From the NCBI GenBank assembly GCA_963807605.1, contig CAWECG010000002.1:24779-88778 (forward strand): 64,000 nucleotides of DNA, read 5' to 3'. How positions within the stretch are numbered: the stretch's first letter is position 1; every line of letters starts with the position of its first letter. The translations under genes were made by a program, and so were the position numbers. Under the pieces are notes generated by a model. The model ran no database searches. It saw only the letters and a list, made by a program, of their open reading frames with translations, and was not told the DNA's origin. Below, piece after piece: positions 20,413 to 63,829 of this stretch. Source of the stretch: Candidatus Bathyarchaeota archaeon. Its GTDB lineage: Archaea > Thermoproteota > Bathyarchaeia > 40CM-2-53-6 > RBG-13-38-9.

Positions 20413-20447
20413 TACTAGTAAACTGGTGCCGAATCCCACCCCCACCA
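20413..20447 (+). mobile_element. Degenerate tRNA-Leu-derived att-like site, family B
   Basis: TACTAGTAAACTGGTGCCGAATCCCACCCCCACCA resembles the reverse complement of 46922-46960. Confidence 0.6.
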
Positions 20448-20869
20448 TCCGCCATCACGGCTTTTCGAAGAACCAATCGCAGGAATGGCAGACGGAGAAC
20501 AAGGACTCAAAGAGTTTATCTGACGGCCCCTGACTACACTATATTGATCATTGGTCTGCTGGAAGCACCTTGGTGACGCTGCCCTCTTCCCTAGTAGGGC
20601 TAATGCCCCTAAGGAGTAGGATACCTTCTAAAGAACACAACCCTGAGAAACCTGAAAGCTGCTGTAGAGATTTTCCAACCGAATGTTCAGGTTGCGATTT
20701 CTATCGAAGCGAACTTCCGAAATATGCATACTTAACGACTCTATATTACGGAATATATCAGCCATGTCCAAGAATCGTTGAGAGATGTCTGAAGTATAAG
20801 TATGAAAAAACTACGTTTTGACAAGGTCACTTCAAGTGTTCTCCGATTACTTGGAGTGGTGGTGATTGA

Positions 20870-23013: not shown

Positions 23014-24528
23014 TCACCTGTCTTCTTGTGATAGTTTGCTGAGTCCTGCTAGAGCTTTCTTGGTCTCTTTTGTGAGTTTGAATTCAGCTTCCTCTTCAGT
23101 CTTGACATGAGGTTCTTGTGTTTTTTTCTCTTCTTGTGCGAGGTAGGATTCTATTTTTTTCTGTTTTTCTTTTGTTTCTGGGGTGTGGAGTCTTCTGCGT
23201 ATGAGTATTTTGCTGTTTATGTTCTGGACCATTTCCCATCCATTATTCAGGTACTTTTCCAGCTTGTCTTCTGTGACGAGTTTGCTTTCATATTTCTGTT
23301 CTTCATCTTCGTGTGGTGGTCTCTCTCTGAGTATTGAGAGTTCGTTTTCATAGAGTGCTATCTCCTCCTCTATCGTGAGTTCCCTATTGATTCCTGTTAC
23401 TTTGCCGATTTTGGCATCTAACAAGTCTATTCCTGCATTTTTTGCAAGGGATTTTAAGACTGCTAGTTGTGTTCGTTTGACAACTTCGCTTTGATCCGAG
23501 ATTGTATTTGTGGTACCTAGATAGGATTCGCATGCTTGATATTGTGATCGCATAACATCGATCATGTCGGGGGGTAGTCTTCCTTTCTCCGTGCTGTATG
23601 TAGCTTCGATGTCGCCCTTATGCCCGGCAAAGAATTGAAGATATGGGTGGGTGATCTTTCCTTTACTCTCTGCGATGGTAAGCTGTGTCTCAGCGTAATG
23701 TCTCAAAACGTAGGGTCTCTTTTTGACCCCTGCATCTCTCATGTACTTTCTTATGAGGGTTCCAATCCGCCTTGTCGAAATAAACTGATTCTTTTTATTG
23801 CCGGGCTTTTCGAATCCCATCACTGGAGACTCTGGAGTTAGTTTCTCACCGGCTCGTAGACGTTGTTCAAGGTATTCTTTGAGGAGGTTACATCCTTCTT
23901 GAAACAGGAATGTAAAATATGGCTTTCTGGTCTTGCTTAGCATAAATCTAACTTTGACCATAGTAGGGATCTTCTCGAAGGTTACCTGTCCATTCTCAAT
24001 CTTGAGTTCAGGTAAGTCACCAATAGTTAGTCCATCGTCTCCGTGGAAATTTCCAATGACTTCAGGTCTTAGATCTGCGAATGCCATTAGAGCCTCAGCA
24101 AATCGTATTCTTGGTGGGGAAGCATGCAGTATCCTGGTCAGTTCTTCCTTGGTTGGGACCTGTTCATTAGCAATTGTTGGGGTAGCGCTTGCGTTGCTGA
24201 CCTTTATCGTTCTGGTCATAGCGATGTTGTTGTATTTCATCCATGATTTTACAGCCTTCTGGAGTGATATGATGTATTGTGGTGATTTCTTTTGTTCTTC
24301 CAGTTTTGTAACCATGTCTTCAAGTGAGTCTTGAAATTTATCCATATCCTTCTTCGCAGAATTCACCATCTGTTTTGGTGTTTTGTTGATAAGTTCACAT
24401 ATCTTTCCAATCTGTCGCCATTTCACTTCAGCTGTTATCTTACTTCCACGTCCAAGATTACCAAGCCAACGGCGTACCTTCTCGTCCTTAAGCAGATGAG
24501 CATGTTTCATACCAGGTTTCGTTTTCAA
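23014..24528 (-). CDS. Tyrosine recombinase/integrase
   Basis: LRPE, RPYVLRHY, FFAGH..DIEATY catalytic motifs. Confidence 0.85.
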   Translation of the reverse strand: MKTKPGMKHAHLLKDEKVRRWLGNLGRGSKITAEVKWRQIGKICELINKTPKQMVNSAKKDMDKFQDSLEDMVTKLEEQKKSPQYIISLQKAVKSWMKYNNIAMTRTIKVSNASATPTIANEQVPTKEELTRILHASPPRIRFAEALMAFADLRPEVIGNFHGDDGLTIGDLPELKIENGQVTFEKIPTMVKVRFMLSKTRKPYFTFLFQEGCNLLKEYLEQRLRAGEKLTPESPVMGFEKPGNKKNQFISTRRIGTLIRKYMRDAGVKKRPYVLRHYAETQLTIAESKGKITHPYLQFFAGHKGDIEATYSTEKGRLPPDMIDVMRSQYQACESYLGTTNTISDQSEVVKRTQLAVLKSLAKNAGIDLLDAKIGKVTGINRELTIEEEIALYENELSILRERPPHEDEEQKYESKLVTEDKLEKYLNNGWEMVQNINSKILIRRRLHTPETKEKQKKIESYLAQEEKKTQEPHVKTEEEAEFKLTKETKKALAGLSKLSQEDR

Positions 24529-25407: not shown

Positions 25408-26724
<1,317 letters not shown>

Positions 26725-26857
26725 GTAATTCTTGAACTCATTCCTTCGGGTGAAAAGAAAGTCTGTTGATTAGGTTTGCTGTTTTAAGCTGGACTCAGAC
26801 GGGTTAACAATAAAGAGATATTTGGGATGAATAATCTTAGAGTTGATGGGGTAGCAT

Positions 26858-27929: not shown

Positions 27930-28265
27930 GTGACTCGTATGAGCTATTATGATCCTGGCTATTGGAGACGTTTCGGCCGCTACAATCCGTACACTGACCC
28001 GTATACTCAACCGTATACTCAACCGTATACTCAACCGTATACTCAACCGTATACTCAACCGTATACTCAACCGTATACTCAACCGTATACTGAACCATAT
28101 CCCACAATATATCCCGCACCCACAATACAACCCTACAAGCCGGCTGACCCCCTTGAACAGTTGGGCCTTGGTAAGAGAACCATGGTGGCTTCATGTGCCT
28201 ACTGTGGAACTCTAATCTCAGCTGATTTACAATTCTGTCCTCAATGCGGAGCACAAAGGTTCTAA
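27930..28265 (+). CDS. PYTQ-repeat protein with C-terminal Zn ribbon
   Basis: (PYTQ)7 followed by CAYCG..FCPQCG. Confidence 0.7.
   Translation: MTRMSYYDPGYWRRFGRYNPYTDPYTQPYTQPYTQPYTQPYTQPYTQPYTQPYTEPYPTIYPAPTIQPYKPADPLEQLGLGKRTMVASCAYCGTLISADLQFCPQCGAQRF
27987..28094 (+). repeat. 12-bp tandem repeat CCGTATACTCAA
   Basis: Seven exact copies at 27999-28082 with one variant unit on each side. Confidence 0.95.
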
Positions 28266-31232: not shown

Positions 31233-31289
31233 GGTAATTAGTGTAAGGTTAAGGAACCGAACTTAATCCAAATCCCACCCTCCGCACCA
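31233..31289 (+). mobile_element. tRNA-Leu-derived att-like site, family A
   Basis: Ends in AAATCCCACCCTCCGCACCA; 51/57 identical to 54939-54995; lies immediately upstream of an integrase. Confidence 0.75.
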
Positions 31290-31346
31290 AACCTTAGGTC
31301 AAGTTTGCACGCTATTTGTATGTCTCGAGTTCAAAATTCCCTATTC

Positions 31347-32584
31347 ATGACCGCGCAGCTAGTCTCTGATATTCATCATTATGATCGAAGACTCATTGGA
31401 GCGCTCTCCATCCTAGACGGTGACGGGAAAATACTCGAGAGCAACCGCAAGAAGGTCAAAGAATTTCTCGAGTACTCCAAGCCGAGGGGCTGAGTGCACC
31501 AAGACAGGTCAGATATGTCTACGTACTCAGGAAAGTCTCGAGACTACTAGGCAAAGAATTCAAACGCACGACGAAAGATGTCTTGGCGACAGTTGTCTCC
31601 AAGCTCGAAAAGCAGGATACTTCCTACGAGACAAAGCGGTCTGAGAAGGAATGCATCAAGAGATTCTACGCGACTAAGAAACACTGAAGACTACTATCCA
31701 ACTGAAGTCAAATGGATCAAAGCCACGCGCAAGAATAACCACAAAATCCTGCCTAACATCTTCTGACTGAAGATGAAGTGAAGAAGCTTGCCGAGGCTTG
31801 CCAGAATCAGAGAGACCGAGCCCTCATACTTGTCACATATGAGACCGGCTGCAGAGTTGGAGAAATACTAACCCTGAAAGTAGGCGACATCTAATTTGAC
31901 CAGTACGGCGCCGTCATGGTTGTAAAAGGCAAGACCGGCCCTAGAAGAGTGCGAATCATCTTCACGGCTAAGGCGTTATCAGAATGGTTGAATTACCATC
32001 CAGCAAGAAAGGATCCTCAGGCGCCTTTGTGGACAAGTCTCGAATCCACCAACTCAACTAAGCCTTTCGAGTACTATGCGTTCAGGAAAATGTTGTCCGT
32101 CGTAGCTCGGAGAGTAGGCATAGACAAGCGGGTTAATACTCACTCTTTCCGGCATGCAAGAGCTTCGAATCTGGCAAACGTGCTTACGGAGGCGCAGATG
32201 AAGGAATATATCGGCTAGGTTGGCGACTCGAGAATGGCCTCAACTTGCGTGCATCTCTCTGGAAGAAACATTGACAATGCGTTACTCAACCTTAACGGCA
32301 TTAAGACAGAAGAGGAGGTCAACAAGGAAGAACACAAGTTAAGAATTAAGACGTGTTTGCGTTGTCAAGAGTCTAATTCGCCTACCAGTAGCTTCTGCTC
32401 ACGATGTGGATCCCCGCTGGACATGAAAACTGCTATGCTACTGCATGAGGAGGAGTCGAAGAGCGATAGCGTGATGGATAATCTCATCGACGATCCTGAT
32501 GTCAGAGCGCTTTTGCGGTCCAAGATGAAGGCCATGGCTACGTCAGCACATCCACTTTCATCTACTTTCTGGCTGTCTAACTAA
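31347..32584 (+). pseudogene. XerC/D-like integrase with C-terminal Zn ribbon, multiply disrupted
   Basis: RDRALI..YETGCRVGE, KGKTG.RRV, HSFRHARA; frameshifts plus in-frame TAA 31892 and TAG 32216. Confidence 0.88.
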
Positions 32585-41915: not shown

Positions 41916-42108
41916 TAGTATTACACTGGGAGAAACCCGATTACTAATGTGTGCATTCTGTTGGGAATATGTCTTTCTATTTGTCTCAAGATTGCCCCAT
42001 TTCTTGATGTTTGGCCTTAACCCAATGATTAAATATCCCGACCTCCTATCTCCAAATCGACCTAGCGTGAACGGATTGAGTGACCCTTGTGACCTCGGCT
42101 AGGCAGGC

Positions 42109-42516
42109 TTGAGGCCAGGACGCTCCAGAAAATTTCTTTCCGGGCGGAGCTCCGAATCGTCACTCCGAATAGAGAGAAAACAGAACGATTCCGCGAGTCT
42201 CGACCTGGTGTTCTCGGCCCTTTCTAGCCCGACCCGCCGTGCCATCCTGGACATGCCCTCGAAGGGAGAATCTCGGGTTACCGAGTTGGTCAGGCCCTTC
42301 AACATCTCTCTGCCGGCGATATCCAAGCATCTAAGCGTGCTCGAGAAGGCAGAGGTCATTAGCAAGGTGAAGGAGGGGAGGGTCTACCTGTGCCGGATTG
42401 AGCCCGTCCCGCTCCAGAACGCCGCCCGATGGATTGGCGCATACGGCCCGCATTGGGAGAGGCAGCTGAAGTCGCTATCCGATTATCTCGTGAAAAAGGA
42501 GGGAGGCAAAGACTGA
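42109..42516 (+). CDS. ArsR/SmtB-family regulator
   Basis: FSALSSPTRRAIL, ISLPAISKHL.VLE, KEGR. Confidence 0.85.
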   Translation: MRPGRSRKFLSGRSSESSLRIERKQNDSASLDLVFSALSSPTRRAILDMPSKGESRVTELVRPFNISLPAISKHLSVLEKAEVISKVKEGRVYLCRIEPVPLQNAARWIGAYGPHWERQLKSLSDYLVKKEGGKD

Positions 42517-42950
42517 CCGAGAGGAATCCGACGGAGGCGCTTCAAATTCGGAGGGTCATCCCCTACGACAAAGAGAAAGTCTTCAGGGCCTGGACCGACC
42601 CTTCTGAATTGAAGAAGTGGTGGACCATAGGAGAGGGATGGAAGACACGATTCGCCGAAGTGGACCTCAGAGTAGGAGGCAAATTCACTCTGGGGAACGA
42701 GCCCGCCGGAGGGAGTATTCTGCTCATCACTGGGGAGTACCTCGTCGTTGAGCCGCCCGACAGACTGGTGTACACTTGGCGATTCCAGGGGGAGAACCCC
42801 GAGGAGAGTCTCATCACGGTCGAGTTCAAGGGAGATGGAGACAAGACAGAGATTGTGGTCACGCATGAACGGGCTTCGAAGGAGATGGCTCAGGGCGCGA
42901 TTGCAGGGTGGGAAGCCGTCCAGCATAGCCTGGAGGCCTTCTCGTCCTAG
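42513..42950 (+). CDS. SRPBCC/AHSA1 protein (probable CTG start)
   Basis: VFRAWTDP..LKKWW, DLRVGG, PPDRLVYTW; CTG overlaps the upstream TGA and follows GGAGG. Confidence 0.85.
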   Translation: MTERNPTEALQIRRVIPYDKEKVFRAWTDPSELKKWWTIGEGWKTRFAEVDLRVGGKFTLGNEPAGGSILLITGEYLVVEPPDRLVYTWRFQGENPEESLITVEFKGDGDKTEIVVTHERASKEMAQGAIAGWEAVQHSLEAFSS

Positions 42951-43010
42951 GACGGCTCGCTCCAGATAGTTAACCGAATGGTTAAGTATTCGTCATTCGT
43001 AGGTTTGTTC

Positions 43011-43427
43011 ATGGTATACATATTAGACGAAGGAAGCAAGTTCAAGGCGCCACTGGACAAGGTTTGGAAGCTGAACCAGTCCGAGGGCCTGCACAACCAT
43101 CCCAGCCTAAGGAACCAGAAGGCTGAACAGCAGGGAGAGCATGTCATACTGACCTACGAGACAGCGATGCCCGACGGGACGTGGGTCAAGCAGAAGACCC
43201 GAACCACCGCCTATCCTCCACTCGGTATAGTATTCGAGACACTCGAGGGACCGATGGCAGGCTCGAAGTCGTTCCAGTACTACACCCCGAAGGGGAATGA
43301 AACAGGCGTAACCGTCGTAGGAGAATTCACGTCGAAGGGGATTCCCGATGCCGACTTGAGGAAGGCAGTGATGGCATTCCTAGAGACGGTCTTCAATGAG
43401 GATCAGAAGAACCTGGCCCGGACGTAG
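43011..43427 (+). CDS. SRPBCC-like hypothetical protein
   Basis: FKAPLDKVW..EGPMAGS pattern. Confidence 0.55.
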   Translation: MVYILDEGSKFKAPLDKVWKLNQSEGLHNHPSLRNQKAEQQGEHVILTYETAMPDGTWVKQKTRTTAYPPLGIVFETLEGPMAGSKSFQYYTPKGNETGVTVVGEFTSKGIPDADLRKAVMAFLETVFNEDQKNLART

Positions 43428-43434
43428 GAACGGC

Positions 43435-43902
43435 ATGAATATTCCACGGTTCGTGAGCAGTCTGCGCTCTGGGAATCCGTCGGGAGGGATGATGGCCAAC
43501 AAGCCGCCGAGAATCCTTCTCTATGTCAGAGTACTGATGCTGGTGAATTTGACCCGCCTGGCAGGGCTGCAGTTCATCGCCGCCCCGAGCGGCACATGGC
43601 CGGCGTACTTCGCGTTCCCGTTCGGCACTGGCGACTTTCTGACCGCGCTCACGGTGATACCCATCGTCTGGGCGTTGGGGAAACCAGGACCCAGGAGGTA
43701 CGCACTCGGGCTTATGTGGAGCTCTCTGGGGCTGGTTGACGGCCTCTTTGGGCTCGCGGTCTCCGGCTATGGAGGGATACTCGGCCAGATAAGCTCGGCC
43801 CTCGGTCCGACTCTGTACCTCCTCCCGGTCGACCTTGCCATACAAGCCGTGGCCATAGTGGTCTTGCTCAGCGGATCCGTAGCAAGGTACATGACCAAGT
43901 GA
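43435..43902 (+). CDS. Membrane protein
   Basis: Four hydrophobic segments, operon context. Confidence 0.6.
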   Translation: MNIPRFVSSLRSGNPSGGMMANKPPRILLYVRVLMLVNLTRLAGLQFIAAPSGTWPAYFAFPFGTGDFLTALTVIPIVWALGKPGPRRYALGLMWSSLGLVDGLFGLAVSGYGGILGQISSALGPTLYLLPVDLAIQAVAIVVLLSGSVARYMTK

Positions 43903-44318
43903 GCCCGTTGGAGACGGCACAGAAGCTCTCGACAATCAAGCAGACGGTGAGGTTCAACGCCTCACCCGAGGAGGTTTACGACGCACTGATGGACTCCAAG
44001 AAGCACGCTGAAGTCACTGGGTCCCCGGCCAGCATAAGCAAGAAGGTGGGCGGTAGGTTCACGGCCTGGGACGGCTACATTCTGGGGAAGAACCTCGAAC
44101 TTGAACCGGGGAGGAAGATTGTACAGGAGTGGACGACGACGGAGTGGCCCGAAGGCTACCCTCCCTCGAGGCTGACGATTACCCTGACCGAGAAGGCCGG
44201 CGGCACCGAGCTGAAGATGGTGCACTCCAAGGTCCCAGCTGAACAAAAGGACGACTACGCCGGGGGCTGGCGGTCGTTCTACTGGCAGCCGCTCGAATCC
44301 TATTTTCGGAAGAAGTAG
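43899..44318 (+). CDS. AHSA1-like SRPBCC protein
   Basis: ASPEEVYDALMD, VGG.F.AWDG, KIVQEW, GW..FYW. Confidence 0.88.
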   Translation: MSPLETAQKLSTIKQTVRFNASPEEVYDALMDSKKHAEVTGSPASISKKVGGRFTAWDGYILGKNLELEPGRKIVQEWTTTEWPEGYPPSRLTITLTEKAGGTELKMVHSKVPAEQKDDYAGGWRSFYWQPLESYFRKK

Positions 44319-46250: not shown

Positions 46251-46921
46251 CCTGAGTACATTAAAATGTTGGCTGGCCTATTCAGGCTATCACCCGACGG
46301 TTAACAGGAAGACAAATCACCCGCAGACCTAACAGAACTCGGTCAAGAGGACGACCGGAGGATTCTAGTGTAACCGAGTTCGAAACGCCTAGGTGACAAT
46401 GGTTTTATATGATGGCTCTTAACGAACTTTATGGCATAATGTTTTGAAGGGATAACGGTTTTGTGGGATAGTTTTGCTCTCAGCAGTTATTCTGGTCCCC
46501 GTATCGTAAATCGTTGGTGAGTTGTTGATGCTGGACGTATCTGAGAAATGTGTTGATTGCGGAAGAAAGACGAGCAGAGGCTTAAGATACTGCGATGTCT
46601 GTAGAAAAGCACATTTCACAAGTGCCCTTCGAAGTATAAGACATATCCAGCCCGAACCCGACAACACAATCAAACTTCCTGTCACGACCCATCACAAGAA
46701 AGCCACTTTAGAACTCGATAGTAAAGTAAAAGATAGATTGCATCAGCCTTCTCCAAGAATCGCTCACGGAACTTCCTCTTTGACACGTACTTGAATCTTA
46801 ATTGTATTATTGTCGTGCAGCTTCAGCGGCGTCACCGCGATTTCTTTGTAGGACTGCCGTGAAATCCCCCACCAATCTTACCGAGACACACGTGGGCTTG
46901 CGTCAACAGGCAGGCACGTAT

Positions 46922-46960
46922 TGGTGCGGGGAGTGGGATTCGCGCACCAGTTTACCAGTA
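46922..46960 (-). mobile_element. tRNA-Leu-derived att/dif-like site, family B copy 1
   Basis: TGGTGCGGGGA-GTGGGA-TTCGCGCACCA-GTTTACCAGTA, identical to 50313-50351. Confidence 0.8.
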
Positions 46961-47312
46961 CATATAAAGTCTAATTCACAGAGATAAGGCGGTTCAACAA
47001 AAATCTAAATTGCCAATTGAGTATTGTTCCCTATCGACGTTGTTCACTAGCAGTCGGACTCCTTGTGGTAAAGAAGGTGTGACGTTTCTTAGGTCAGAAC
47101 TTTCTCTTGTATGAAGGCGCCGTGCCAGTAATGTCACCAAGTTTTTCTATGGCAGACAAAGCCATATTGAAATGTGGCTATGCGAGGACATCATGATTTG
47201 AACCGTTAGATATTGTTTGTGTCGCGTCGTCGTCATAGCTAGTGAGAGCAATATACGGGTACGCGCCAGCGCATAGGAATTCTCGGTCATTAAGGCGGCT
47301 TTTGGTGATTGC

Positions 47313-48963
47313 CTAAACGTATCGTCTGCAAGAGGAGCAGTACCATTTTTGATAATTAGCCGAGTAGGTTAGAGGACCATAGCATCTTGGACATACCATT
47401 CTGCAGGAAGCACTACTTATCACTGTTCCCGGGGGAGGACAAGATGCTGGAGCTAACGGTACTGGAGCTACTACCGGGATGATTCTTCTACGCCGCCCAA
47501 GGGTCGCTGCTGCCACTATTGGGATTAGAGCAATCAGAAGCAATATTGGAAGCAGAAGGGGAAAAATTGCTGCTTGAGGTTTTGATGCAAGAGTCAGTGT
47601 TGTTGTCTTCGTGTTGTTAGAAGGGTCATCGCAGCCTATAGTACTGCCAGGGTCAGCCGTTATGGAAACAGCATAGATGCCGGGAGAGAAGCTTGATGTG
47701 TTCCAACTGAAGTGGACCACTGTTGATGTCATGTTGGCAAGGTTTACCGATGTCAACCCGATACTGGTCGTATTGGCAAAGAGGCCAACGTTGAAGGTTT
47801 CAGGTATTAGCCCAAGGTTTGCTATCGTCGCGTTATAGTTCACAACGTCGCCTTGGGTTGCCGTAGTTCTGGATGCTGTCATGGTGAGTGTTGAGACTTC
47901 TCGGACCGTCATGCCCGGAGGAAGATTCTGTCCTGATCCCTACCTGACCAGCTCGATCGTAGATTATGGTCGTCGGGCTTATGCTCTGCACAACAGCCAC
48001 CCGCCTCTGCGCCGTGACTGTGAATGTGACTGACCATGAAGTTCCAGCCGATATCAGCGGAATCTGCCAGAAGATGACGCCGCTAGAGGTTGAATTCGGT
48101 GGCTGAGTCGCATCATTATCATATGTCACGATTGAGGTAGGCAAGTTCTCCGTGACATGAATATTCTCTGCAGGGGCCGGCTGGTTAAGTTCAGTATTGA
48201 TCTGGAGGTATATGCCGGCGAGTTCAGAGCCTGACGGGGCATAGTAATATTTCCCGTCACCTGCTGCCGATATTTCCTGCATTAAGGTTTGATTAACGGG
48301 ATCAGTGATGTAGCTGTAAGCACCGCCGGGACCAAGTCCAATGCAGTAGACTTCGATATCAGCGGCGGCAGCACTTTGGGCTAGCTTAATGAAGGGTGGC
48401 ACTGCAGTTATACCATAGTGTGGGTCGCCGTCCGTCATGAGAATTACCACCTTCCTGAAGCCGGGTCTCCCTTTTACCATAAGATCTGTGACACTTTTGT
48501 TAAGTGCGCCGTAAAGATTTGTGTAGTCATAAGGAGGAATTATTTCTTGTATCGCCTTATCGAGTGCGACCTTGCCAGAAGCATTGGTTACCGTCATGTC
48601 TATCTCCAGCTTCACACTCACAGCAAAACTTATCACCTCATCCAGATCGCTGCTGTGTTGAACGCCTACGAAACCCATTGCAGCGGCTAGCGCGTCTTGG
48701 AACCTTTCACCAAACATGCTTCCCGTCCTGTCGATCGCCAATACAACCTGAAGCGGCCCGGAAACGCCCCCTCCCGTGACAGCCATGCTGATATTTACAG
48801 TCAAGCGCTGCCCCGGCAAAGCACATGATGGGGTGATTGATTTTGTCGTAACCACGTCCGCCGAGGTCTGCGCTTTAACGTCGAATGGTTTTGTGAATGA
48901 CAGAAGCAGCATAATTATGATCGAGAGAACAGTAATGCGAAATCGTGTTGAATCTCGGCGCAT
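47313..48963 (-). CDS. Surface vWA + CARDB-like + TM + Zn-ribbon protein, frameshifted near 47930
   Basis: Signal peptide, DRTGSM MIDAS, LMTDG; Ig-like NATIANLG..FSWNT; CPRC..WYCSSC. Confidence 0.8.
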
Positions 48964-49168
48964 CTACAAATTCGCCGTTTATATTGTGGGGCATTTCGGT
49001 ATTAATCTCTTATTGCTCAGAAAATTAATTGTATGTAATCTTCAGCCTGCCACATCCGACATAGACCTCGATCTGCGACTGCCGCTAGTTCCGAATCTAG
49101 GTGATCAGAATTCTCCGGCAGGAGTGGATTGGAGCTAACGCACGCTAGCTTTTACATAAATAGTCAAG

Positions 49169-49549
49169 TCAGCAGACGCGGCAGAGCGGCTGCTGGACAA
49201 GATAGCTCAAGGGTGGGGGTCGATAGCAATACTCCTGTGGAGGTGGTAGACACGCAACAGGTTGGGGCGGAGGCTGGATGAAACCCTGGACTGGCGGAGG
49301 CTGATAAACCATCCTTTGAGGCATAGTCGGTACGATGCATTGCATGGGTTGTGGTTGGTAGTAAACCTCCGGAGGCTGAGGAATCAAGCATTCTTGGGGT
49401 GGAGGTTGATAACAGCATAGCTGTGGAGGTTGAGGAACAGCAACTAGAGCTGGCGGCGTAGGCACCAGGTAAGACTGAGGTGGCGAAGCACAATAGGTCA
49501 TCAAAGGCGGTCTAGGAACACAATAATACGACATATTAGGCAACCCCAT
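49169..49549 (-). CDS. Cys/Pro/Gln-rich repetitive protein
   Basis: Repeated [YC]xxPPPQ units about every 8-9 aa; GAGGT RBS upstream. Confidence 0.55.
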   Translation of the reverse strand: MGLPNMSYYCVPRPPLMTYCASPPQSYLVPTPPALVAVPQPPQLCCYQPPPQECLIPQPPEVYYQPQPMQCIVPTMPQRMVYQPPPVQGFIQPPPQPVACLPPPQEYCYRPPPLSYLVQQPLCRVC

Positions 49550-49873
49550 TACCTCTCTCTAACACGCATATACGATCCTACGATTCCATTGGAAAACGCG
49601 CTCCATTTTCATTTTTTGAATGGATCTAAAATAAACAATGCATGAGATGATAATTCTAAATAATTATCACTTGAACTGGATATAGCCACGAACAGCAATC
49701 AATTTCGTAGTCATCCTTTTTGTGCACCCTTTATTCCACACTGTGCTTGTTATGCACCTTAGCTGGTGAGCACACATAAAATCAGTAGACTTACTCAAAC
49801 CCAAACGTTATTTGATTATTCTCAAAGACGAGAGGGCTCTCAACATCGTATGTGTTTCTATCTAGCTAGCTGT

Positions 49874-50260
49874 CTATGAACTTGCTTCTTTTGGTCTGTC
49901 TAATTCCTGCTTAACCTCTACAAGAATTACCAGTAGAGGAATAAACAGCAGGAACTGTTGTCTGTTGTATTTCGACTTATTTTGAAGTTCAGATTCAGCC
50001 TCGTTTTGAGCGCTATTCTTCTTTGATATTATGATCGCATGGACGAATAGTGGAAGATAGTTCACTCCTGTGAGTAGAAGGTAGAAACCAATAACTAGGC
50101 TGACATACGATCCTACCAGTCCGACTACAATCTGTTGGAAACCTAGCCCAAATAGAAGCGAAGTTCCTAAGCCGAACTCTACAAGAATGAAAGGTCGACC
50201 GTGCAACAGGGTATCTAAGGCAACAAGCTTACGACTGTTTATGAGACCGCTCCCCATGTC
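49874..50260 (-). CDS. Small membrane protein
   Basis: RKLVALD..LHG..FILVEF, GVNYLPL; probable start MGSGLIN. Confidence 0.6.
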   Translation of the reverse strand, partial: DMGSGLINSRKLVALDTLLHGRPFILVEFGLGTSLLFGLGFQQIVVGLVGSYVSLVIGFYLLLTGVNYLPLFVHAIIISKKNSAQNEAESELQNKSKYNRQQFLLFIPLLVILVEVKQELDRPKEASS

Positions 50261-50312
50261 AAAACACCGTCCATACTCTCTCACGAATAGTTGACTTAGC
50301 TCGCTCGTAAAA

Positions 50313-50351
50313 TGGTGCGGGGAGTGGGATTCGCGCACCAGTTTACCAGTA
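50313..50351 (-). mobile_element. tRNA-Leu-derived att/dif-like site, family B copy 2
   Basis: Identical 39-mer to 46922-46960. Confidence 0.8.
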
Positions 50352-50401
50352 TATATATACTCAATACGGGCGTGACACTGACTAAACCGACGCTTTCGTT
50401 C

Positions 50402-52054
50402 TTACAGCTTTTGTCGAATTTCTCGCAGAAACATCTCCTTACGTTCCTTCGTGAATCCCTCGAAATCGTCGTGTCTCATGCACTCATAGGCCTCGGTTGA
50501 AATCAAGTGACTTTTCATTGTCTGCAACAATCGATTCTCATCGTTGCTATGGCTGTGTAGCAGCAATGGAATAAACTCAGATGGCTTTTTGTTACTTTTG
50601 ACCTGATTCGTTGAGATTAGAGTTCGATTGAGAATCGAATTAACATGAGTGTACTTACCAAACTTGGACTTAGGAAAAATGTGATCGTCTTGACATTGCA
50701 TGAGGTTCGCAGCTTGTCCGTTGATAAAGTCTCTTGCGCCAGCGAGAACGATTAGACACATTAGCCCTCGATATATGGCCGAATGTGGTTCATCAACATA
50801 CAAGTCCACGGAATCGGCTGTGACATTGTCCAACCAGGAGGGAGGATTTCCGTTATCGAACCATTTTACAATGTCTTTTGTGTCACGATAGGACTTCGTG
50901 TCTGCTGCGTTATCATATCGATTTGAGAAAACACTCGCCCAGTACCAGTGGTCGAGTTTCCGATACAATGCTTCTCCACCCTTCCGAATGCGAATTTCGT
51001 GCAGAATGGCTGCAAGTGGGACGGTCATTGTGGTGTAAGGAATCCATGAACTTCCGAATGCTCCGTATCCACCTTCTGATGCGGCCATGCGATTATGAGC
51101 CTTCGAAATCGAATGTGTTGCATTACTCCATTCTTTTTCAAATCGCTCCTTGCTCAGCTCATCAATTGCGTCAAGTAAGGCACTCTTCCTAGGCTCTTTT
51201 CCGATTCCAATCGTAATGATCTTCAGAACAAACTCGGGCTTGATATCTCTCGTAGCGGCACTATCTTCTTGCTCGAATAGCTCCCATGATTCTCGCAGCC
51301 GTACCCCCTTCAAGTATAGGCGGGCGCCTGCTAGATCGAAGAGTGAGAGAGTCACGCCGGTGCTGTTTATTCGCTCGAATATGTTTACGATGTTCTCTTT
51401 ACCCGTTTCAGGAGAAAGCCCGACAACGGGTACCATGAAGTTGGCGAACCGTTGATAATACGATTCAATTTTGTTCTTTTGCACGTCGCTGGATAGAAAC
51501 TGCTGCTTGTGAAATAGCCAATTATAGAACTGTTTTGAATCTTTCATTAGCGAGAATGTAATGGCTCGCCCTTCTTTTGTTGCAGTTTCCATCTCTTCCA
51601 TCCGTCTTCGATCTGCTACTGAGATTCCGATGACTGCATTTTCAGTTTCGCCCTCCAACGCATGATCTAGCTGCAGAAACAAATGAGTTGCTTTCTTTGC
51701 GTGCTTAAGCGGAATTTTGGGCTCATACAGTACATAGAACAGTGACGAAATTCGCTGTTGCCCATCGAGCACCACCTTGACGGTTGAGTAGTTCCGCGGT
51801 TCAGCGCTGGGATTTACGTCTTTGAGTCCTTCTACTGTGCGAAATGGAAAAAGTGGCTTGTCCGCAGGCGTATCGAGCATCAAGAAGGTGCCTATGAAAT
51901 AACCTTCTAAAATGGAAACGAGTAGTTGTTCGACGTTTTCACGCCACCAGACAAAGGATCGCTGAAATTCCGGAATCATGACTTTTCCGCTGTAAGTGTC
52001 TTTGATAATAGATAGCAGGTTCTCAGGATTCGCCTTCGGGGTCTCTATTCCCAA
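50402..52054 (-). CDS. DUF262 + HNH (GmrSD-like) modification-dependent nuclease
   Basis: IPEFQRSFVW, LDGQQR, IFERINSTG; DDHIFP..N..LN C-terminal HNH. Confidence 0.85.
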   Translation of the reverse strand: MGIETPKANPENLLSIIKDTYSGKVMIPEFQRSFVWWRENVEQLLVSILEGYFIGTFLMLDTPADKPLFPFRTVEGLKDVNPSAEPRNYSTVKVVLDGQQRISSLFYVLYEPKIPLKHAKKATHLFLQLDHALEGETENAVIGISVADRRRMEEMETATKEGRAITFSLMKDSKQFYNWLFHKQQFLSSDVQKNKIESYYQRFANFMVPVVGLSPETGKENIVNIFERINSTGVTLSLFDLAGARLYLKGVRLRESWELFEQEDSAATRDIKPEFVLKIITIGIGKEPRKSALLDAIDELSKERFEKEWSNATHSISKAHNRMAASEGGYGAFGSSWIPYTTMTVPLAAILHEIRIRKGGEALYRKLDHWYWASVFSNRYDNAADTKSYRDTKDIVKWFDNGNPPSWLDNVTADSVDLYVDEPHSAIYRGLMCLIVLAGARDFINGQAANLMQCQDDHIFPKSKFGKYTHVNSILNRTLISTNQVKSNKKPSEFIPLLLHSHSNDENRLLQTMKSHLISTEAYECMRHDDFEGFTKERKEMFLREIRQKL

Positions 52055-52349
52055 GGAAGCTCAGCTCAAGATTATCGAATAACACGCCCGCGACCATCGT
52101 ATAGGATTGTATCAGAGAGTTTGAATTCCTCGCCACACTTGCACTCAGCGTAGAGCTCTGAGGACTGAAGTCTAGCTATGAATTTGTCATAGCTCATAAC
52201 TTGACCTCATAATTGAGGAGACTTCGTTTTGAATATGTGACTTGTGTATCGATAGTTCCTAATGTAGGGTTATGTCTACCCCACGGCACTGGGGGGCAAT
52301 ATGCTTGCTGAGGTTTCTGGACCAAACGGAAATAGATAGTAAATAGTGA

Positions 52350-52661
52350 TTAAACAATCAGCATCTTTTGAGCTTCGTGTAAAGGAATCGAAAAATCTAC
52401 TACCTTCTCGGATTCCTTGATAGTTATTGAAAGTGACTTCTCAAAGCGTCTCGCAAAAAAATAATAGTACGGTTTATCCTTTGTAAGGGATACTGCATCC
52501 ACTTTTCTATCAAGCAAATCTCGGATGTAGTTCTCGATAGGCACGTTCCAAACAGCCCGCATAGTATTTAACGATTCAATCAAATCTTCATTATCAGCAT
52601 AATCTGTCTCCGAAGTAACTCTACGAACTGAGACTTTTGAGAGATGAAGATTCCTCGACAT
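52350..52661 (-). CDS. Hypothetical protein
   Basis: 103-aa ORF coupled to the upstream gene. Confidence 0.5.
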   Translation of the reverse strand: MSRNLHLSKVSVRRVTSETDYADNEDLIESLNTMRAVWNVPIENYIRDLLDRKVDAVSLTKDKPYYYFFARRFEKSLSITIKESEKVVDFSIPLHEAQKMLIV

Positions 52662-52664
52662 ATT

Positions 52665-52859
52665 TTACACAACCTTTTCTCTTACTGCCTTCATTGCTTT
52701 TTCAATCTCAGTCAGCTGATCGCTTATCTGCGTTACACGTTTACTAATATCGGTAAGTTGTTGCTCTAACCCCGTTGCTTTTGTCTTTAGCTCATCAAAT
52801 TGTGCATTCATGTTTTCAATTACTCTAGTAGCTGCCTTCTGAGCAGCTGCATACCCCAT
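52665..52859 (-). CDS. Small coiled-coil protein
   Basis: Heptad pattern L..LE.QL.DI..RV.QI..QL.EI. Confidence 0.55.
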   Translation of the reverse strand: MGYAAAQKAATRVIENMNAQFDELKTKATGLEQQLTDISKRVTQISDQLTEIEKAMKAVREKVV

Positions 52860-53146
52860 AGTTCATCATCATGACATTCGCTATTAGGTACTTAACGTTT
52901 TATGCATAAACTTCAAAACAAGCTGCTCCATTAGTATCACCCGAAATTCTTCAGGGTATTTCAGTAGGTTGAAACGCTCTAGGTTACCAGAGCCTGTGAA
53001 GGTTCTTTTGCGTTCGATAAATCGAATGCTCATGGTATAAGCACGCCAAATCCTCTAGAGTTCGTGAGCTGGATTGCGAAGAACTTGGTCAATAGATTCA
53101 AGTGGCTGGTTATGAGTACTCCAATAGCCGTAGGGTGTTGTCTTGA

Positions 53147-53695
53147 TTGATTCAATATTACTTTGACATTGAGACTACAGGCACTGAACCAGAAAAGGAT
53201 AAGATAATAACGATACAATGGCAAAGGCTGAACGAATCCAGTGGTGATCCTATCGGCGAATTGCAGATACTAAAGGAGTGGGAAGCTTCTGAGAGAGCCA
53301 TCCTGACAGCGGTTCTTCCTCAAATCCAATGCGAAAACTGCTGGGACTTCATTCCAATTGGTAAGAATTTACTGTTTGACTTTAACTTCTTAGACAAGAG
53401 AGCTAGGAAACACGGTCTTAACGGCTTTGATCTAGCATACTGCTACAGTCACCCGCATCTGGACTTGAAACACGTTTTAGTGTTAATAAATCAGGGCAAG
53501 TTCAAGGGCTATGATAAAGTTCTGGACATCGGCGGACACGCCGTGACCAATAAGAGCATTCCCAATCTCTACGAGAGGAGGATGTATCAAGATATAGTTG
53601 AGTACATAAAAAGGGAAACTGAGCTCTTCCTAAAAGGACTAAAGATACTAAAGAGCGAAATGCCAGCATTGCTGGTTCATTTTAAGAATCTTTGA
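53147..53695 (+). CDS. DEDD/RNase H-like 3'-5' exonuclease
   Basis: YFDIETTG, IGKNLLFD, HLDL, EYIKRE. Confidence 0.75.
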   Translation: MIQYYFDIETTGTEPEKDKIITIQWQRLNESSGDPIGELQILKEWEASERAILTAVLPQIQCENCWDFIPIGKNLLFDFNFLDKRARKHGLNGFDLAYCYSHPHLDLKHVLVLINQGKFKGYDKVLDIGGHAVTNKSIPNLYERRMYQDIVEYIKRETELFLKGLKILKSEMPALLVHFKNL

Positions 53696-53698
53696 AAA

Positions 53699-53735
53699 TG
53701 GTTCGAGGAGTGGGATTCGCACACCAGTTTACCAC
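53699..53735 (-). mobile_element. tRNA-Leu-derived att/dif-like site, family B copy 3
   Basis: TGGTTCGAGGA-GTGGGA-TTCGCACACCA-GTTTACCA, 3 mismatches in the 28-mer. Confidence 0.75.
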
Positions 53736-53869
53736 TCACAGTCGCTAAAGGTGGTCACCTACAGAGAGCCATATATATCGCCTAAAGGTGCGGAATAATT
53801 CACGATACCCAGAACGTAGAGTCGGTGCTGCGGCTCTTTCGAAGTACCTAGTTGCCTTAGCTGAAATCT

Positions 53870-54493
53870 TTACTTCGACGCTTGTTTCCCACTCAAATAT
53901 GCACCCTGACTTATACCAGTCAATACGACCAGTGTGGAACTTACATCCGGAAGGTCGAGCTGTGTGAGTGGGGAAGGCGGACTAGCCATCGTGGTGAAGA
54001 ATGTGCCCAAGAATATCAGAACGGCCACGAAGGTCCAAGACAGCATTTGAAACCGCGTGATGCTGAACTGATTATTTTCGTTAAGCATCGTGGACAATGG
54101 TTGCGGCGGTTCCTCTGGAGCGACAGTCTGGAGACGAGGGTAATACTTCCCTCCGGAAACGCCATAGCTTACGACTGTTGAGCCAGCGTTGATCCCGAGT
54201 AGTGTTAGAATGTTGGCAGGCAGAGCAGTTGGAGGTAGGACATTGGAAAGAATTCTGACAAAAGAGACCACTAGAAATGCGAATGCAATAACGAATGTCC
54301 AAAGCAGTAATTGAAAGCGCCCCAAACTCGGGTAGAGGTCGTCGTCACAAATCACCCCTCTCAAGAATATCTTGGTTGTTCCGTCGGGCAACTTGACGGC
54401 CCTTCTGCCAACACGAATCAAAATGACAAATAACACTACGTCAACTGCTATCGCTAAGGCGTATGATTCCTGAAGAATCTCTAACAGCACCAA
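53870..54493 (-). CDS. Membrane protein with internal duplication
   Basis: SLGRFQLLLWT/SITRFQMLSWT and LLGINAG/LTGISQG repeated halves. Confidence 0.7.
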   Translation of the reverse strand: MVLLEILQESYALAIAVDVVLFVILIRVGRRAVKLPDGTTKIFLRGVICDDDLYPSLGRFQLLLWTFVIAFAFLVVSFVRILSNVLPPTALPANILTLLGINAGSTVVSYGVSGGKYYPRLQTVAPEEPPQPLSTMLNENNQFSITRFQMLSWTFVAVLIFLGTFFTTMASPPSPLTQLDLPDVSSTLVVLTGISQGAYLSGKQASK

Positions 54494-54938
54494 TGTTGTG
54501 ATACTGCCTTACTGCCGGCGATGATTATAAGATTTTGCAACCTTTCGGCTGGTGTTCCATATCGGGGTCTATACCGACTTATGATTGTGCGGGTAGTTCC
54601 GATAATTCTTCGGGGGTTGGAGGCTAATCTTGTTGGTGATAACTGTAGGGGCAGGTATCAAATACCTAGCTCAGAATCCGTGTTTGGCATTCTTGCGAAG
54701 GCGTTACAGGTTCATCCTAACAGCATTAGTACTGCTATCGCTATGGCAACAAGTGAAGCATATCCGAAGCAACGTTGAAGAAGAGCTCAGACACGGCTAA
54801 GTCAGCTCAGTTAAGTGAATTGTTTATCTCATCCTTGACGAAGTGTTGAAATCAGCTGTTCATTATAGATAAGCAGAGTCGAGAGCTTGAAAGATATTCG
54901 CTCAAGATCATAGGCGTAGTCTCAGGTATTGAATCCAA

Positions 54939-54995
54939 GGTAATTAGTGTAAGGTTAGGGAATCGAACTTAATCCAAATCCCACTTCCCGCAACA
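54939..54995 (+). mobile_element. tRNA-Leu-derived att-like site, family A copy 2
   Basis: 51/57 identical to 31233-31289. Confidence 0.75.
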
Positions 54996-55020: not shown

Positions 55021-55570
55021 GTAAGAAGTGAAAGAGCAGGACATAGCATGTCTGATTGAGAGAGTAAACAGAGCATTCCGTAGTTTGCAGATAACAATGT
55101 GTTAACCACTGGTTAGGGACAAAGGGAAAGAGATGGACAGAGGGCAAGTCTGATGATGGATCACTGTGTAGATCAAGGGCTTTAGGGCTGCATAGATGGA
55201 GAGAAAAAGAATGAACGAGATTTGGCGAAAGTGCTACACGAGAGCGTAAGAGCAATAAAGGGTAAGATAGAGTGCAGAATAACAATCGACCCTTCATACA
55301 CAGAGAAAAAGAACCCTAAAGACTACACAGTATAAGGTAACAACAGTAAAGAGCAAGATAACAGGGTAAGAACACAAAACAGGAAATAGAAAAGAACCAG
55401 GAAAGAATAACAATAGAGCAAGAACCACAAACAACAAAGCAAAAGCAACAATCACACTAAAATCCCATAATAACTATCCCACAACGACTAAAACAACAAA
55501 CATGCACACTCTAGAATCAGACTAACAGAGCATGTAAAACCGATTCACACAGGAGGTATCTATAGCACCT
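55021..55570 (+). repeat. Non-coding A/G-rich repeat family, copy B (longest)
   Basis: 55021-55415 is a direct repeat of 59159-59555; 55343-55570 is an inverted repeat of 9977-10199. Confidence 0.9.
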
Positions 55571-56867: not shown

Positions 56868-57127
56868 ATGTTCATTATTTTGTAATCTTAAATATTTAAA
56901 GACGATGCGAACCGAGACTTACTCTTGTATCAACCTCACCTTGCGAGAACTGAATCCCAGACTTTTCAGGGAGATCTGCAGAATAAGTCTTGTCAAATGG
57001 TTTGTGGAAACTATGAAAGTATATGTAACCTTCTACTATTGTGGCCTTTGGGTTTAGAGTGGTTTTCGCACTAGGATCTTGCTGTTTATCTGCTGGACCA
57101 TTAGCCATCCACTGTTCAAGTATTTTT

Positions 57128-57637
57128 CTAGCTGGCTTTCTTTGATGAGTCTGCTCTGATACTTTTGGGGTCTTCTTCAAGTGTTAGCTGCTTGGCCTTG
57201 TGTTTCTCGATTTCTTCTTCGTAGATTTTGAGCTTTTCTTCTGCGGGCATGGAGCTCACATCTATTTGATAGAATGTTGCGGATGCGGGGTCCATTCCGA
57301 GTATGTTCTTGGCTACGAGCTTTAATGCTTCCAGTTTGGCTTCTTTTACGACAGAACTCTCGTCTATGTTGCTGGTTGTGCCAAGGAATGGTTCGCAGTC
57401 CTGGTATTGTTGTCTCATGCCTGCTATCATGGGTGGTGGAAGTCTTCCTTTCTCCGTGCTGTATCGGGCTTCGATGTCGCCCTTATGCCCGGCAAGAAAT
57501 TGGAGGTATTGGTGACTGATTTTTCCTTTGGACTCGGCGATAGTGAACTGTGTCTCAGCATAGGCTCTCAGCACGTAAGGCCTCTTGATGACTCCTGCTG
57601 CCCGCATGCGCATCTCCAACTGGAGGAGAATCCTCAT
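57128..57637 (-). pseudogene. Integrase C-terminal remnant, paralogue of 23014-24528
   Basis: RPYVLRAYAETQ..AESKGKI.H.YLQF.AGHKGDIEA.YSTEKGRLPP; N-terminus missing. Confidence 0.85.
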
Positions 57638-59158: not shown

Positions 59159-59555
59159 GTAAGAAGTGAAAGAGCAGGACATAGCAAATCTGATTGAGAG
59201 AATAAACAGACCATTCCGTAAAACTCAAAGAACAATGTGTTAGCGATCGCTAGGGACAAAGGGAAAGAGGCGGACAGAGGATAAGTCTGGTTATGATGGA
59301 TCATTGTGTAGAACAAGAGCTTTGGAGCTGCATAGATGGAGAGAAAACGAATGATCGAGATTTGGCGAAAGTGTTACACGAGAGCGTAAGGGCAATAAAG
59401 GGTAAGATAGAGTGCAGGATAACAATCAACCCTTCATACACAGAGAAAAAGAACCCTAAAGACTACACAGTATAAGGTAACAACAGTAAAGAGCAAGATA
59501 ACAGGGTAAGAACACAAAACAGGAAATAGGAAAGAACTAGGTAAGAATAACAATA
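59159..59555 (+). repeat. Non-coding repeat family, copy C
   Basis: Direct repeat of 55021-55415, including a long identical block around ACAGAGAAAAAGAACCCTAAAGACTACACAG. Confidence 0.9.
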
Positions 59556-59902: not shown

Positions 59903-62086
<2,184 letters not shown>

Positions 62087-62138
62087 TCATCCTGATTATT
62101 ACTATTTAGTTTCACACGTATCTCAAAAGACCATCTAC

Positions 62139-62159
62139 TTAAGAGTGACTATTACTTAA
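62139..62159. promoter_or_regulatory. Imperfect palindrome, candidate Fur/PerR operator
   Basis: TTAAGAGTGACTATTACTTAA between the divergent katG and fur genes. Confidence 0.4.
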
Positions 62160-62161
62160 TA

Positions 62162-62641
62162 ATGGTCATGAGAAAACCAGAAGCCCTGCCTGATGGCTCC
62201 ATCGTAGGAGTTCTCAGAACAAAAGGATACAAGGCTACTCCTCAGAGGATAGCCATCTGCCGATTCGCAGCCAGTAGCAGAGAGCATCCTACAGCAGGAA
62301 GAATATACAATGAAGTCAGAAAACAACATCCTACTGTCAGCCTCGCGACGGTCTACAAGACTATTGACCTCCTCAAGGAGCACCACATCATTCAAGAACT
62401 AGCTATTGTTGACGGAGACAAGAGATTTGACTCGAACACGAAGACTCACTTGAACTTAATCTGCGTAAAATGTGGAGAAATACGTGACTCAGACAATCCG
62501 GTCATCAAGGATTCTGTCGAGAAGGCTGCCGAAGAAGAAAGGTTCAACATCACAGGCCAGAATTTGACTCTATATGGAGTTTGCCATCAATGTGCTGCCA
62601 AGCATAGACCCGCTATGAAATTAGCGAAGTCACGCCAGTAG
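62162..62641 (+). CDS. perR: Fur-family regulator, PerR-like
   Basis: TPQR.AI, HPTA..IY, SLATVYKT, H.NLIC.KCG, GVC..C; divergent from catalase. Confidence 0.85.
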   Translation: MVMRKPEALPDGSIVGVLRTKGYKATPQRIAICRFAASSREHPTAGRIYNEVRKQHPTVSLATVYKTIDLLKEHHIIQELAIVDGDKRFDSNTKTHLNLICVKCGEIRDSDNPVIKDSVEKAAEEERFNITGQNLTLYGVCHQCAAKHRPAMKLAKSRQ

Positions 62642-62839
62642 TCGTCTAGAGAGATCGTTCGACCACAAACATTAATCAGGCCCTCGTTGGATGCTAAAAG
62701 AGCGGGATTGATTCATGAAGCTTCCAGAATACGTTCCCAAACCTTTCTTATCCATATAGCAATCTCATCCTAATTATTACTATTTAGTTTCATACATATC
62801 TCAAAAGACCATCTACTTAAGAGTGACTATTACTTAAGA

Positions 62840-63321
62840 ATGGTCATGAGAAAACCAGAAGCCCTGCCTGATGGCTCCATCGTAGGAGTTCTCAGAACAA
62901 AAGGATACAAGGCTACTCCTCAGAGGATAGCCATCTGCCGATTCGCAGCCAGTAGCAGAAGAGCATCCTGCAGCAGGAAGAATATACAATAGAAGTCAGA
63001 AAACAACATCCTACTGTCAGCCTTGTGATGGTCTACAAGACTATTGACATCCTCAAGGAGCACCACATCATTCAAGAACTAGCTATTGTTGACGGAGACA
63101 AGAGATTTGACTCGAACATGGAGACTGACTTGAACCTAATCTGCGTAAAATGTGGAGAAATACGTGACTCAGACAATCCGGTCATCAAGGATTCTGTCGA
63201 GAAGGCTGCCGAAGAAGAAAGGTTCAACATCACAGGCCAGAATCTGACTCTATATGGAGTTTGCCATCAATGTGCTGCCAAGCATAGACGCGTTATGAAA
63301 TTAGCGAAGTCAGGCGAGTAG
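62840..63321 (+). pseudogene. Second fur/perR copy, frameshifted
   Basis: Two extra A bases relative to copy 1 (AGCAGAAGAGC, CAATAGAAG) plus substitutions including H to D in HLNLIC. Confidence 0.85.
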
Positions 63322-63370
63322 CCGGCTAGAGAGATTGTTCGACCACAAACATTAATCAGGCCCTCGTTGG

Positions 63371-63829
63371 ATGCTAAAAGAGCGGGATTGTTCCATGAAG
63401 CTTCCAGAATACGTCCCCAAACAGGAAGTTAGAGAGGTTTGCAGGAGACTCGGCATCAGAGACTGGTCCAGACTGAAAGAACCTAAAGTGACCCCCATGG
63501 AAGGTAAGACTATACTTAGGGCGCTCGGAATTAAAGGAATGAGAATCGACCCAGAGCAGTTTCGCAAGGGGCTTGAAGTGGAGCTCGAGCATGGTATCGA
63601 GTTTGATGATGCTAACGTAACTAACAACCATCCTCTTCTTACAGGTAAGATTGTAATTGCTCACATGAAGGAGACGCTCGATTATTACAAACGTCTCGAC
63701 GTTGCTGAACTCGAAGGCGACCTTCTCAAAGCCTTCAGAAAGAATGATTTGAACAAGGCTGCATCTGTCTACAAGAGACTCATCTCGGCGAAAACTGCAC
63801 TGAGCAAATCTGAATCTGAAGAACTCTAG
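63371..63829 (+). CDS. DUF5661-like protein
   Basis: EQFRKGLEVELEHG..NVTN..P.LTGKI..AH.KE..DYY.RL. Confidence 0.7.
   Translation: MLKERDCSMKLPEYVPKQEVREVCRRLGIRDWSRLKEPKVTPMEGKTILRALGIKGMRIDPEQFRKGLEVELEHGIEFDDANVTNNHPLLTGKIVIAHMKETLDYYKRLDVAELEGDLLKAFRKNDLNKAASVYKRLISAKTALSKSESEEL

Follow-up and report, generated by a model that had tools for sequence, protein, structure and literature searches.

The Bathyarchaeia are among the most abundant archaea of sediments, and little is known about how they exchange genes. Here we describe an array of short direct repeats, derived from the 3' end of a leucine tRNA (tRNA-Leu) gene, and the cargo modules that they bound in a 64,000-nt stretch of a Candidatus Bathyarchaeota genome. 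This stretch, hereafter the window, forms the right-hand end of the 88.8-kb contig C2; the genome as a whole comprises 2.65 Mb in five contigs. A 21-nt core recurs on the plus strand of the window: two copies (46922-46942 and 50313-50333) are exact and a third (53699-53719) has two mismatches, against an expectation of 0.00 matches in shuffled versions of the window. The third copy differs by three substitutions over a 28-mer, the GTTTACCA extension is found at all three, and a repeat finder places them in one family. A first-pass annotation, made from the letters of the window, had reported three copies in the same orientation with spacings of 3391 and 3386 bp, and both the coordinates and the spacings are borne out. 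The near-equal spacing is attributable to chance, because the two enclosed modules (A and B) are unrelated and share no sequence. In the sense of the tRNA, which is that of the minus strand, the order is truncated module C, site J3, module B, site J2, module A, site J1 and a 582-bp flank. The individual features, including a fourth site far from the array, are as follows.

46340..46921, minus strand: flank R3, 582 bp, a copy of the sequence natively downstream of tRNA-Leu(CAG)
46922..46968, minus strand: site J1, distal end of module A; core 46922-46942 equals the 3'-terminal 21 nt of tRNA-Leu, the arm 46943-46961 is conserved, and a TATA-like extension runs up to 46968
46969..50312, minus strand: module A; CARDB (47313-47912) and vWA (47833-48963) genes, two open reading frames (ORFs) without a family (49169-49549 and 49874-50338), no integrase
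50313..50362, minus strand: site J2, junction of modules B and A; core 50313-50333, then the arm and a TATA-like extension
50363..53698, minus strand: module B; GmrSD_N/HNH-like nuclease (50402-52054, HNH match weak), small ORFs (52350-52859), RNase_H_2-type exonuclease fragment on the plus strand (53147-53695), no integrase
53699..53737, minus strand: site J3, decayed, junction of modules C and B; two changes in the core, one in the arm
53738..54938, minus strand: module C, truncated; a single 207-aa ORF without a family (53870-54493)
20414..20449, plus strand: fourth copy of the site, decayed; arm plus core, with deletions

The first-pass annotation had called vWA and surface genes in one module and a GmrSD-like nuclease with an exonuclease in the other. 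Those calls stand, as does the statement that neither module carries an integrase. Several junctions have counterparts elsewhere in the genome. At J1, a stretch of 49 nt is identical to a junction at C1:487166-487214, while at J2 a short inverted copy of the arm (TTTTAC) lies across the core and lengthens the palindrome (fold z = -5.0). The homology of the exonuclease gene next to J3 to C3:437456-438079 ends exactly at J3. The interior of module A (47250-49710) is 83% identical to C3:193513-195991, where the copy has no flanking site. Modules A, B and C were not found in related genomes or in metagenome loci, save for a weak similarity of the vWA gene.

On its outer side, module C ends at an attachment (att) site of another family in the opposite orientation, and the array therefore lacks a tRNA head; neither ARAGORN nor Rfam finds a tRNA gene or an RNA family in the window. 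At the other end, flank R3 is 93-95% identical to the DNA directly behind the tRNA at C3:354669 and behind the site at C3:452183, and the former, with the flank directly behind the tRNA, represents an empty site. A small ORF in R3 has homologues just downstream of arrays in two loci from other genera (L117 and L068). The window array is thus a head-less fragment of a tRNA-Leu island, lying inside a larger, defence-rich mobile region. We note that the same flank of about 700 bp lies behind both the tRNA-Leu(CAG) gene at C3:354669 and the site 97.5 kb away from it, and that the intervening 97.5 kb could be a single very large island or could reflect a rearrangement between cores. Contig C2 was considered as an alternative copy of this C3:354-452 kb island, with which it shares scattered pieces only.

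Four class II tRNA genes of the genome end in precisely the 21 nt that the core presents on the minus strand (T-loop, T-stem, acceptor strand, A73 and CCA):

C1:490645-490781: class II tRNA gene with this 3' end
C3:354582-354686: class II tRNA gene with this 3' end, anticodon CAG
C3:770909-771065: class II tRNA gene with this 3' end
C3:~1084800-1084953: class II tRNA gene with this 3' end

All four have the discriminator A73 and an encoded CCA, and the CAG anticodon of the second identifies it as a leucine tRNA, so that the suspected derivation of the core from a real tRNA-Leu 3' end is confirmed. Plain ARAGORN detects few tRNA genes here because they are rich in introns.

The anatomy of the site was defined from 116 copies in 92 unique contexts, drawn from the genome, from related genomes and from metagenomes. 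For the latter, an exact 35-nt version of the site was used as the query; it matched 112 contigs, and 80 loci were fetched. Conservation over the 92 contexts is limited to positions -19 to +21 and stops at the CCA, beyond which nothing is conserved in 86 of the 92. The site therefore measures about 40 nt, a 19-nt arm followed by the 21-nt core, and the 11-6-11 unit described in the first-pass annotation is wholly contained in it. That unit is real: the seven arm bases adjoining the core form a mirror image of the final seven of the tRNA, which yields 11-nt arms around TCCCAC that match at 9 of 11 positions, or at 8 of 11 where the core is of the C variant. The arm is conserved over 19 nt and not over 8. 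As a single strand, the site folds into a 7-bp stem with a 14-nt loop; with just 21 nt of tRNA and so plain a stem, it was dismissed as half of a split tRNA or as a structured RNA. A TATA-like extension on the arm side is frequent in the host genome, and some junctions carry a mirror of the arm across the core. A long palindrome with a TATA-like extension was nevertheless rejected as the general form of the site, since it characterises only some copies in the genome and its near relatives and not the 92 contexts.

Arrays of this kind are not peculiar to the window. On contig C1, four modules lie behind a tRNA-Leu gene in the same orientation, parted by 40-nt sites and all devoid of an integrase. 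Their cargo includes a PALP enzyme with enzymes of Cys/Met metabolism, glutaredoxin in a unit of 0.68 kb, a complete operon for 2-oxoacid dehydrogenase together with a regulator, and AglB alongside a protein of the metallo-beta-lactamase fold. By comparison, a 5.5-kb element at C3:765442-770926, between a tRNA-Leu gene and a site of the 40-nt type, carries an intact 324-aa integrase with SAM_1 and Phage_integrase domains (C3:769380-770351), and a 12.9-kb autonomous counterpart of this element, likewise with an integrase, occurs in locus L074. Among the relatives, the site is present in 13 of 41 genomes, which represent three families of the order, and same-orientation arrays occur in several of them. 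At least two cores were found in 21 of the 80 metagenome loci; cores on one contig always share their orientation, and many of these arrays are headed by tRNA-Leu. An intact tRNA gene in the orientation of the sites heads the C1 array as well as arrays in relatives and metagenome loci, as would be expected of accretion at a tRNA gene, though not the array in the window.

The modules themselves are for the most part small and without an integrase. Nineteen of 20 distinct bounded modules (0.6-12.9 kb) carry none, the exception being the 12.9-kb module, and no integrase fragment was detected in the 19, in the C1 array or in the window array. Modules hold one to five genes in both orientations, and those as short as 0.24-0.68 kb keep perfect sites at both ends. 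Taken together, the cargo is mixed and serves metabolism, transport, defence and the cell surface. Beyond this genome, it includes a PALP enzyme, protein kinases with TPR or AAA_16 domains, MFS and ABC transporters, enolase, peptidases, MazF and Usp.

The evidence for recombination at the sites is comparative, and consists of the site-exact presence or absence of modules and of changes in their neighbours. In L133 the order is tRNA, m1, site, m2, site and flank, and in L115 it is site, m1, site and the same flank; the 2.9-kb module m2 is absent from the latter, and the breakpoints fall inside cores. Module m1, at 100% identity, lies behind a site instead of a tRNA in L098. Over the tRNA, a 4-kb module and the site, loci L062 and L100 agree at 99.9% identity, and they diverge from the base after the CCA. 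In a genome of the same genus, a 4-kb segment (96% identical) adjoins a site but has different neighbours, and one 0.64-kb module was found with three different left and three different right neighbours. Module order accordingly differs between genomes with breakpoints exactly at the sites (L133/L115, L062/L100 and the same-genus segment), as the first-pass annotation had anticipated. Sequence variants further constrain the exchange. In two independent arrays (L046/L117 and L063/L093), the tRNA head reads CAAAT and the site behind it CGAAT, as do 114 of the 116 sites. Core position 2 goes with the arm, whereas the variants at the CCA end are kept by the downstream flank, and the crossover is therefore placed inside the core; as judged from these sequences, that position appears to fit the prediction made from the 11-6-11 layout.

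As for the enzyme, the 324-aa integrase of the C3 element attains the highest score of the genome on the XerA model (158 bits, against a cut-off of 220), and its nearest relatives of solved structure are XerA and XerD. The motifs Arg, His-x-x-Arg and Tyr are conserved in its family, which has GD where Xer has GH. Homologues were compared at 10 related loci of other Bathyarchaeia genomes, and at 8 of these the gene follows a class II tRNA gene at a distance of about 590 bp. Because the family is present in only 3 of the 41 relatives, it is best regarded as that of a mobile element and not as the host Xer, and this sporadic occurrence led us to reject the 324-aa protein as XerA. Two further classes of integrase were considered. 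The score on the integron-integrase model is 41 bits, with a cut-off of 265. No protein of the genome matches PF16795, and the SSV-type (suicidal) integrase, whose gene contains the att site and is thereby split into halves at the two ends of the element, was set aside on that ground and because nothing is conserved beyond -19 or after the CCA. The first-pass annotation had proposed the divergent recombinase at 23014-24528 of the window as the enzyme acting on the sites. Although this protein is a genuine tyrosine recombinase, the flanks with which its family is associated are different ones, and a paralogue on C4 lies right behind an unrelated class I tRNA gene; the protein was discarded as first candidate for the cognate enzyme. 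From sequence, the 324-aa integrase would seem the better candidate for the acting enzyme.

The repeats are probably attR-type junctions, each combining an element arm with a tRNA core, of an integrase family that targets tRNA-Leu and whose elements have been stacked by tandem accretion. We likewise think it likely that the range targeted is the tRNA-Leu 3' ends of one order of Bathyarchaeia. Under this reading, each module would end in a site of about 40 nt, in which the 19-nt arm precedes a copy of the 3'-terminal 21 nt of tRNA-Leu, and a tyrosine recombinase would join that site either to an older one or to the tail of the tRNA. Newer arrivals would push earlier modules outward, and same-orientation arrays would result. 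The acting enzyme would be the Xer-like 324-aa integrase of the rare autonomous members, on which modules with nothing but cargo would depend in trans, or in cis where they are stacked with an autonomous element. The anatomy of the site, the arrays behind tRNA-Leu genes, the lack of integrases and the differences between genomes at the sites are direct observations, whereas the acting enzyme and the position of the cut are inferred from them, and the modules may or may not still move. The idea in the first-pass annotation of integrase-less cassettes that accrete and shuffle in trans is upheld with respect to accretion, the lack of an integrase and the site-exact changes in order, whereas movement in trans is plausible. 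Certain observations nevertheless sit uneasily with attR-type accretion by this integrase. The integrase family is found in 3 of the 41 relatives and the sites in 13, and since the integrase is the scarcer of the two, many arrays may be fossils. The window array has neither a tRNA head nor an integrase of the cognate family, and in L074 core position 11, which lies just outside a 6-bp overlap, is not the same in the head as in the distal site. Moreover, the 14 nt that separate the inverted 7-mers of the site equal the length of a casposon duplication, and Cas1 genes or pieces of them lie within a few kb of sites in 3 of the 80 loci (L086, L092 and L130).

These last two points recommend a different origin, in which the modules would be mini-casposons without Cas1; the 7-mers would then mark the tips of their terminal inverted repeats, and the 14 nt would represent a target-site duplication, which measures 14-15 bp in casposons. 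At tRNA tails, the inverted ends of casposons are bordered by duplications (PMC6614799); landing at tRNA 3' ends and tandem stacking are both on record for them (PMC6614799, PMC6563490), and the genome has a Cas1 gene at C3:803480-804700. Yet with nothing conserved after the CCA in 86 of the 92 contexts, one end of such an element would consist of the 7-nt repeat only. The 14-mer is moreover not a copy of its target, because a CAAAT head is followed by a CGAAT site in both independent arrays. Both autonomous elements carry a tyrosine integrase and no Cas1, the Cas1 locus of the genome has no site of the 40-nt type, and the Cas1 pieces in the metagenome loci are not bounded by sites. We consider a casposon origin very improbable. 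As a separate observation, the casposase-like Cas1 gene of L092 is cut off 57 nt from the arm.

A less remote alternative, though in our view an unlikely one, holds that the modules are wrecks of autonomous elements which lost their own integrase by deletion and no longer move, so that genomes differ through new arrivals at the tRNA head and through deletions between sites. Loss of the integrase after integration, as well as tandem integration, is known in archaea (PMC8371274), and accretion plus deletion can account for the difference between L133 and L115. A short remnant of the integrase-side arm (TTTTAC or ATTTAC) persists behind the core at J2 and at three C1 junctions, and the greater spread of the sites relative to the integrase would also follow. 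On the other hand, the search for integrase fragments in the 19 modules and the two arrays recovered none; modules of 0.24-0.68 kb retain perfect sites on both sides, and the 0.64-kb module has three neighbours on either side. It could also be that host XerA uses the sites as mimics of dif, in the manner of integrative mobile elements exploiting Xer (IMEX) or of pdif modules. The 11-6-11 layout is the geometry of archaeal dif (PMC8371274), and the linked integrase has XerA and XerD for its nearest solved relatives. This we find barely credible: no protein of the genome reaches the cut-off of the XerA model, and the one that comes closest, at 158 of 220 bits, is sporadic (3/41) and always beside a class II tRNA gene, as a mobile-element integrase would be. 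Furthermore, the target is a tRNA gene and not dif, and the sites are never inverted, unlike those of pdif modules.

The attR-type reading places the arrays close to several known systems. In Streptococcus thermophilus, the cis-mobilizable elements (CIMEs) related to ICESt1 and ICESt3 have kept attL and attR without integration genes, and an integrase-bearing relative can mobilise them (PMC5704250). The bathyarchaeal modules resemble CIMEs and their tandem accretion in being flanked by att sites and lacking integration genes. They differ in their archaeal host, the lack of conjugation genes, the many very small modules (0.24-7 kb) and the compact 40-nt site; in addition, integrase-less modules far outnumber autonomous ones here, and no integrase relics are seen. 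The tycheposons and genomic islands of Prochlorococcus offer a second parallel, as cargo elements with tyrosine recombinases are inserted there at tRNA genes, newcomers push older elements inward, and partial tRNA repeats are scattered among accessory genes (10.1101/2020.12.28.424599). Tycheposons carry their own integrase and often replication genes, however, whereas 19 of the 20 modules described here carry neither, and the partial tRNA is here always joined to one conserved 19-nt arm. In archaea, tyrosine integrases target tRNA 3' ends such that the core restores the tRNA, and both tandem integration and loss of the integrase have been reported (PMC8371274, PMC6563490). From these elements the present system is set apart by its Xer-like integrase with GD in place of the GH of Xer. 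The process is therefore one known from bacteria, in the form of stacking at a tRNA att site and of att-flanked elements without an integrase; our results extend a known principle and reveal no new mechanism. Unusual features are the host group, a site that is compact (40 nt) and conserved in sequence, and the large excess of small modules that carry only cargo and show no relics of an integrase. We know of no description in Bathyarchaeia of arrays in which many integrase-less cargo modules share one short site.

Two other analogies, both drawn in the first-pass annotation, did not survive comparison. Modules of the pdif type are bounded by inverted sites on plasmids and use the host XerC/D. 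The likeness lies in a short site, the 11-6-11 dyad, and modules without a recombinase of their own, features that IMEX share as well. Here, by contrast, the repeats are direct throughout and chromosomal tRNA-Leu genes serve as anchors of the arrays; the sites are linked to an element-borne integrase, with no host Xer implicated. Integrons, which have been reported in Archaea (PMC9668308), are similar in their same-orientation cargo arrays, with a site for each unit, a fixed head site and one integrase serving all. The analogy fails on the position of the integrase, the type of site and the form of the cassette: no integrase lies beside the arrays and none is of the IntI type, the site is a sequence-conserved, tRNA-derived 40-mer and not a structured attC, and the modules hold several genes in both orientations. 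A bolder proposal, to which we give somewhat less than even credence, is that the arrays represent a cassette-capture system distinct from integrons, in which the tRNA-Leu tail would be the fixed head, cassettes would be born without an integrase and with one 40-nt site each, and a Xer-like integrase on rare helper elements would insert, excise and reshuffle them in trans. If true, such a system would spread metabolic, defence and surface genes through sediment populations. If a helper integrase does move the modules, one short site would account for the transfer of whole operons, and for their accumulation behind tRNA-Leu, across the order; these include operons for a 2-oxoacid dehydrogenase complex, for enzymes of sulfur amino acids, for transporters and for nucleases of defence. 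The small size of the 40-nt site and the single 324-aa candidate enzyme make the idea directly testable in vitro.

The window also contains a second att family and further integrase genes:

23014..24528, minus strand: divergent tyrosine recombinase, 504 aa, of a multi-copy family unlinked to the 40-nt site
31233..31289, plus strand: second att family, left copy, 57 nt
31305..32584, plus strand: tyrosine integrase pseudogene, frame-shifted, right behind the left second-family site
54939..54995, plus strand: second att family, right copy, 57 nt, with a different 36-nt arm on a tRNA-Leu-like core

The pair of second-family sites encloses 31290-54995 (23.7 kb), the three-site array included, and a third 57-nt copy lies at C4:442138-442194. 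The 23.7-kb interval is rich in nucleases (PLD-like, Mrr and an RNase_H_2 fusion). The pseudogene is 42% identical to a 417-aa integrase at C3:391896-393149. Behind the second-family site, a repeat of about 400 bp (91-93% identity) occurs at 55021-55415 and 59159-59555, with a third copy at C4:441717-442112. The recombinase at 23014-24528 is missed by Pfam and was recognised by the XerA model (E = 4e-9); its family has at least four copies in the genome, and a fragment lies at 57051-57607 of the window.

A number of minor features complete the picture. The genome has 298 copies of the octamer GCGCGCGC, about ten times as many as a rough estimate would predict; the octamer stands at several rearrangement junctions in a genome of the same genus (L041) and is absent from the window. 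An IS200/IS605-type TnpB element (OrfB_IS605 with a Cas12f-like TNB domain) occupies 25393-26727 and has at least nine near-full copies of 90-93% identity on other contigs, and a perfect-looking 12-nt tandem repeat of 9.5 copies is found at 27987-28100. Against a background of 45% G+C, 42000-44000 and 59903-62077 form islands of 56-64%; the latter, which carries a 724-aa gene of the catalase-peroxidase type, has the appearance of recent foreign DNA. Near the end of the contig, a 680-bp segment is duplicated head to tail (62065-62742 and 62743-63422) with 96% identity.

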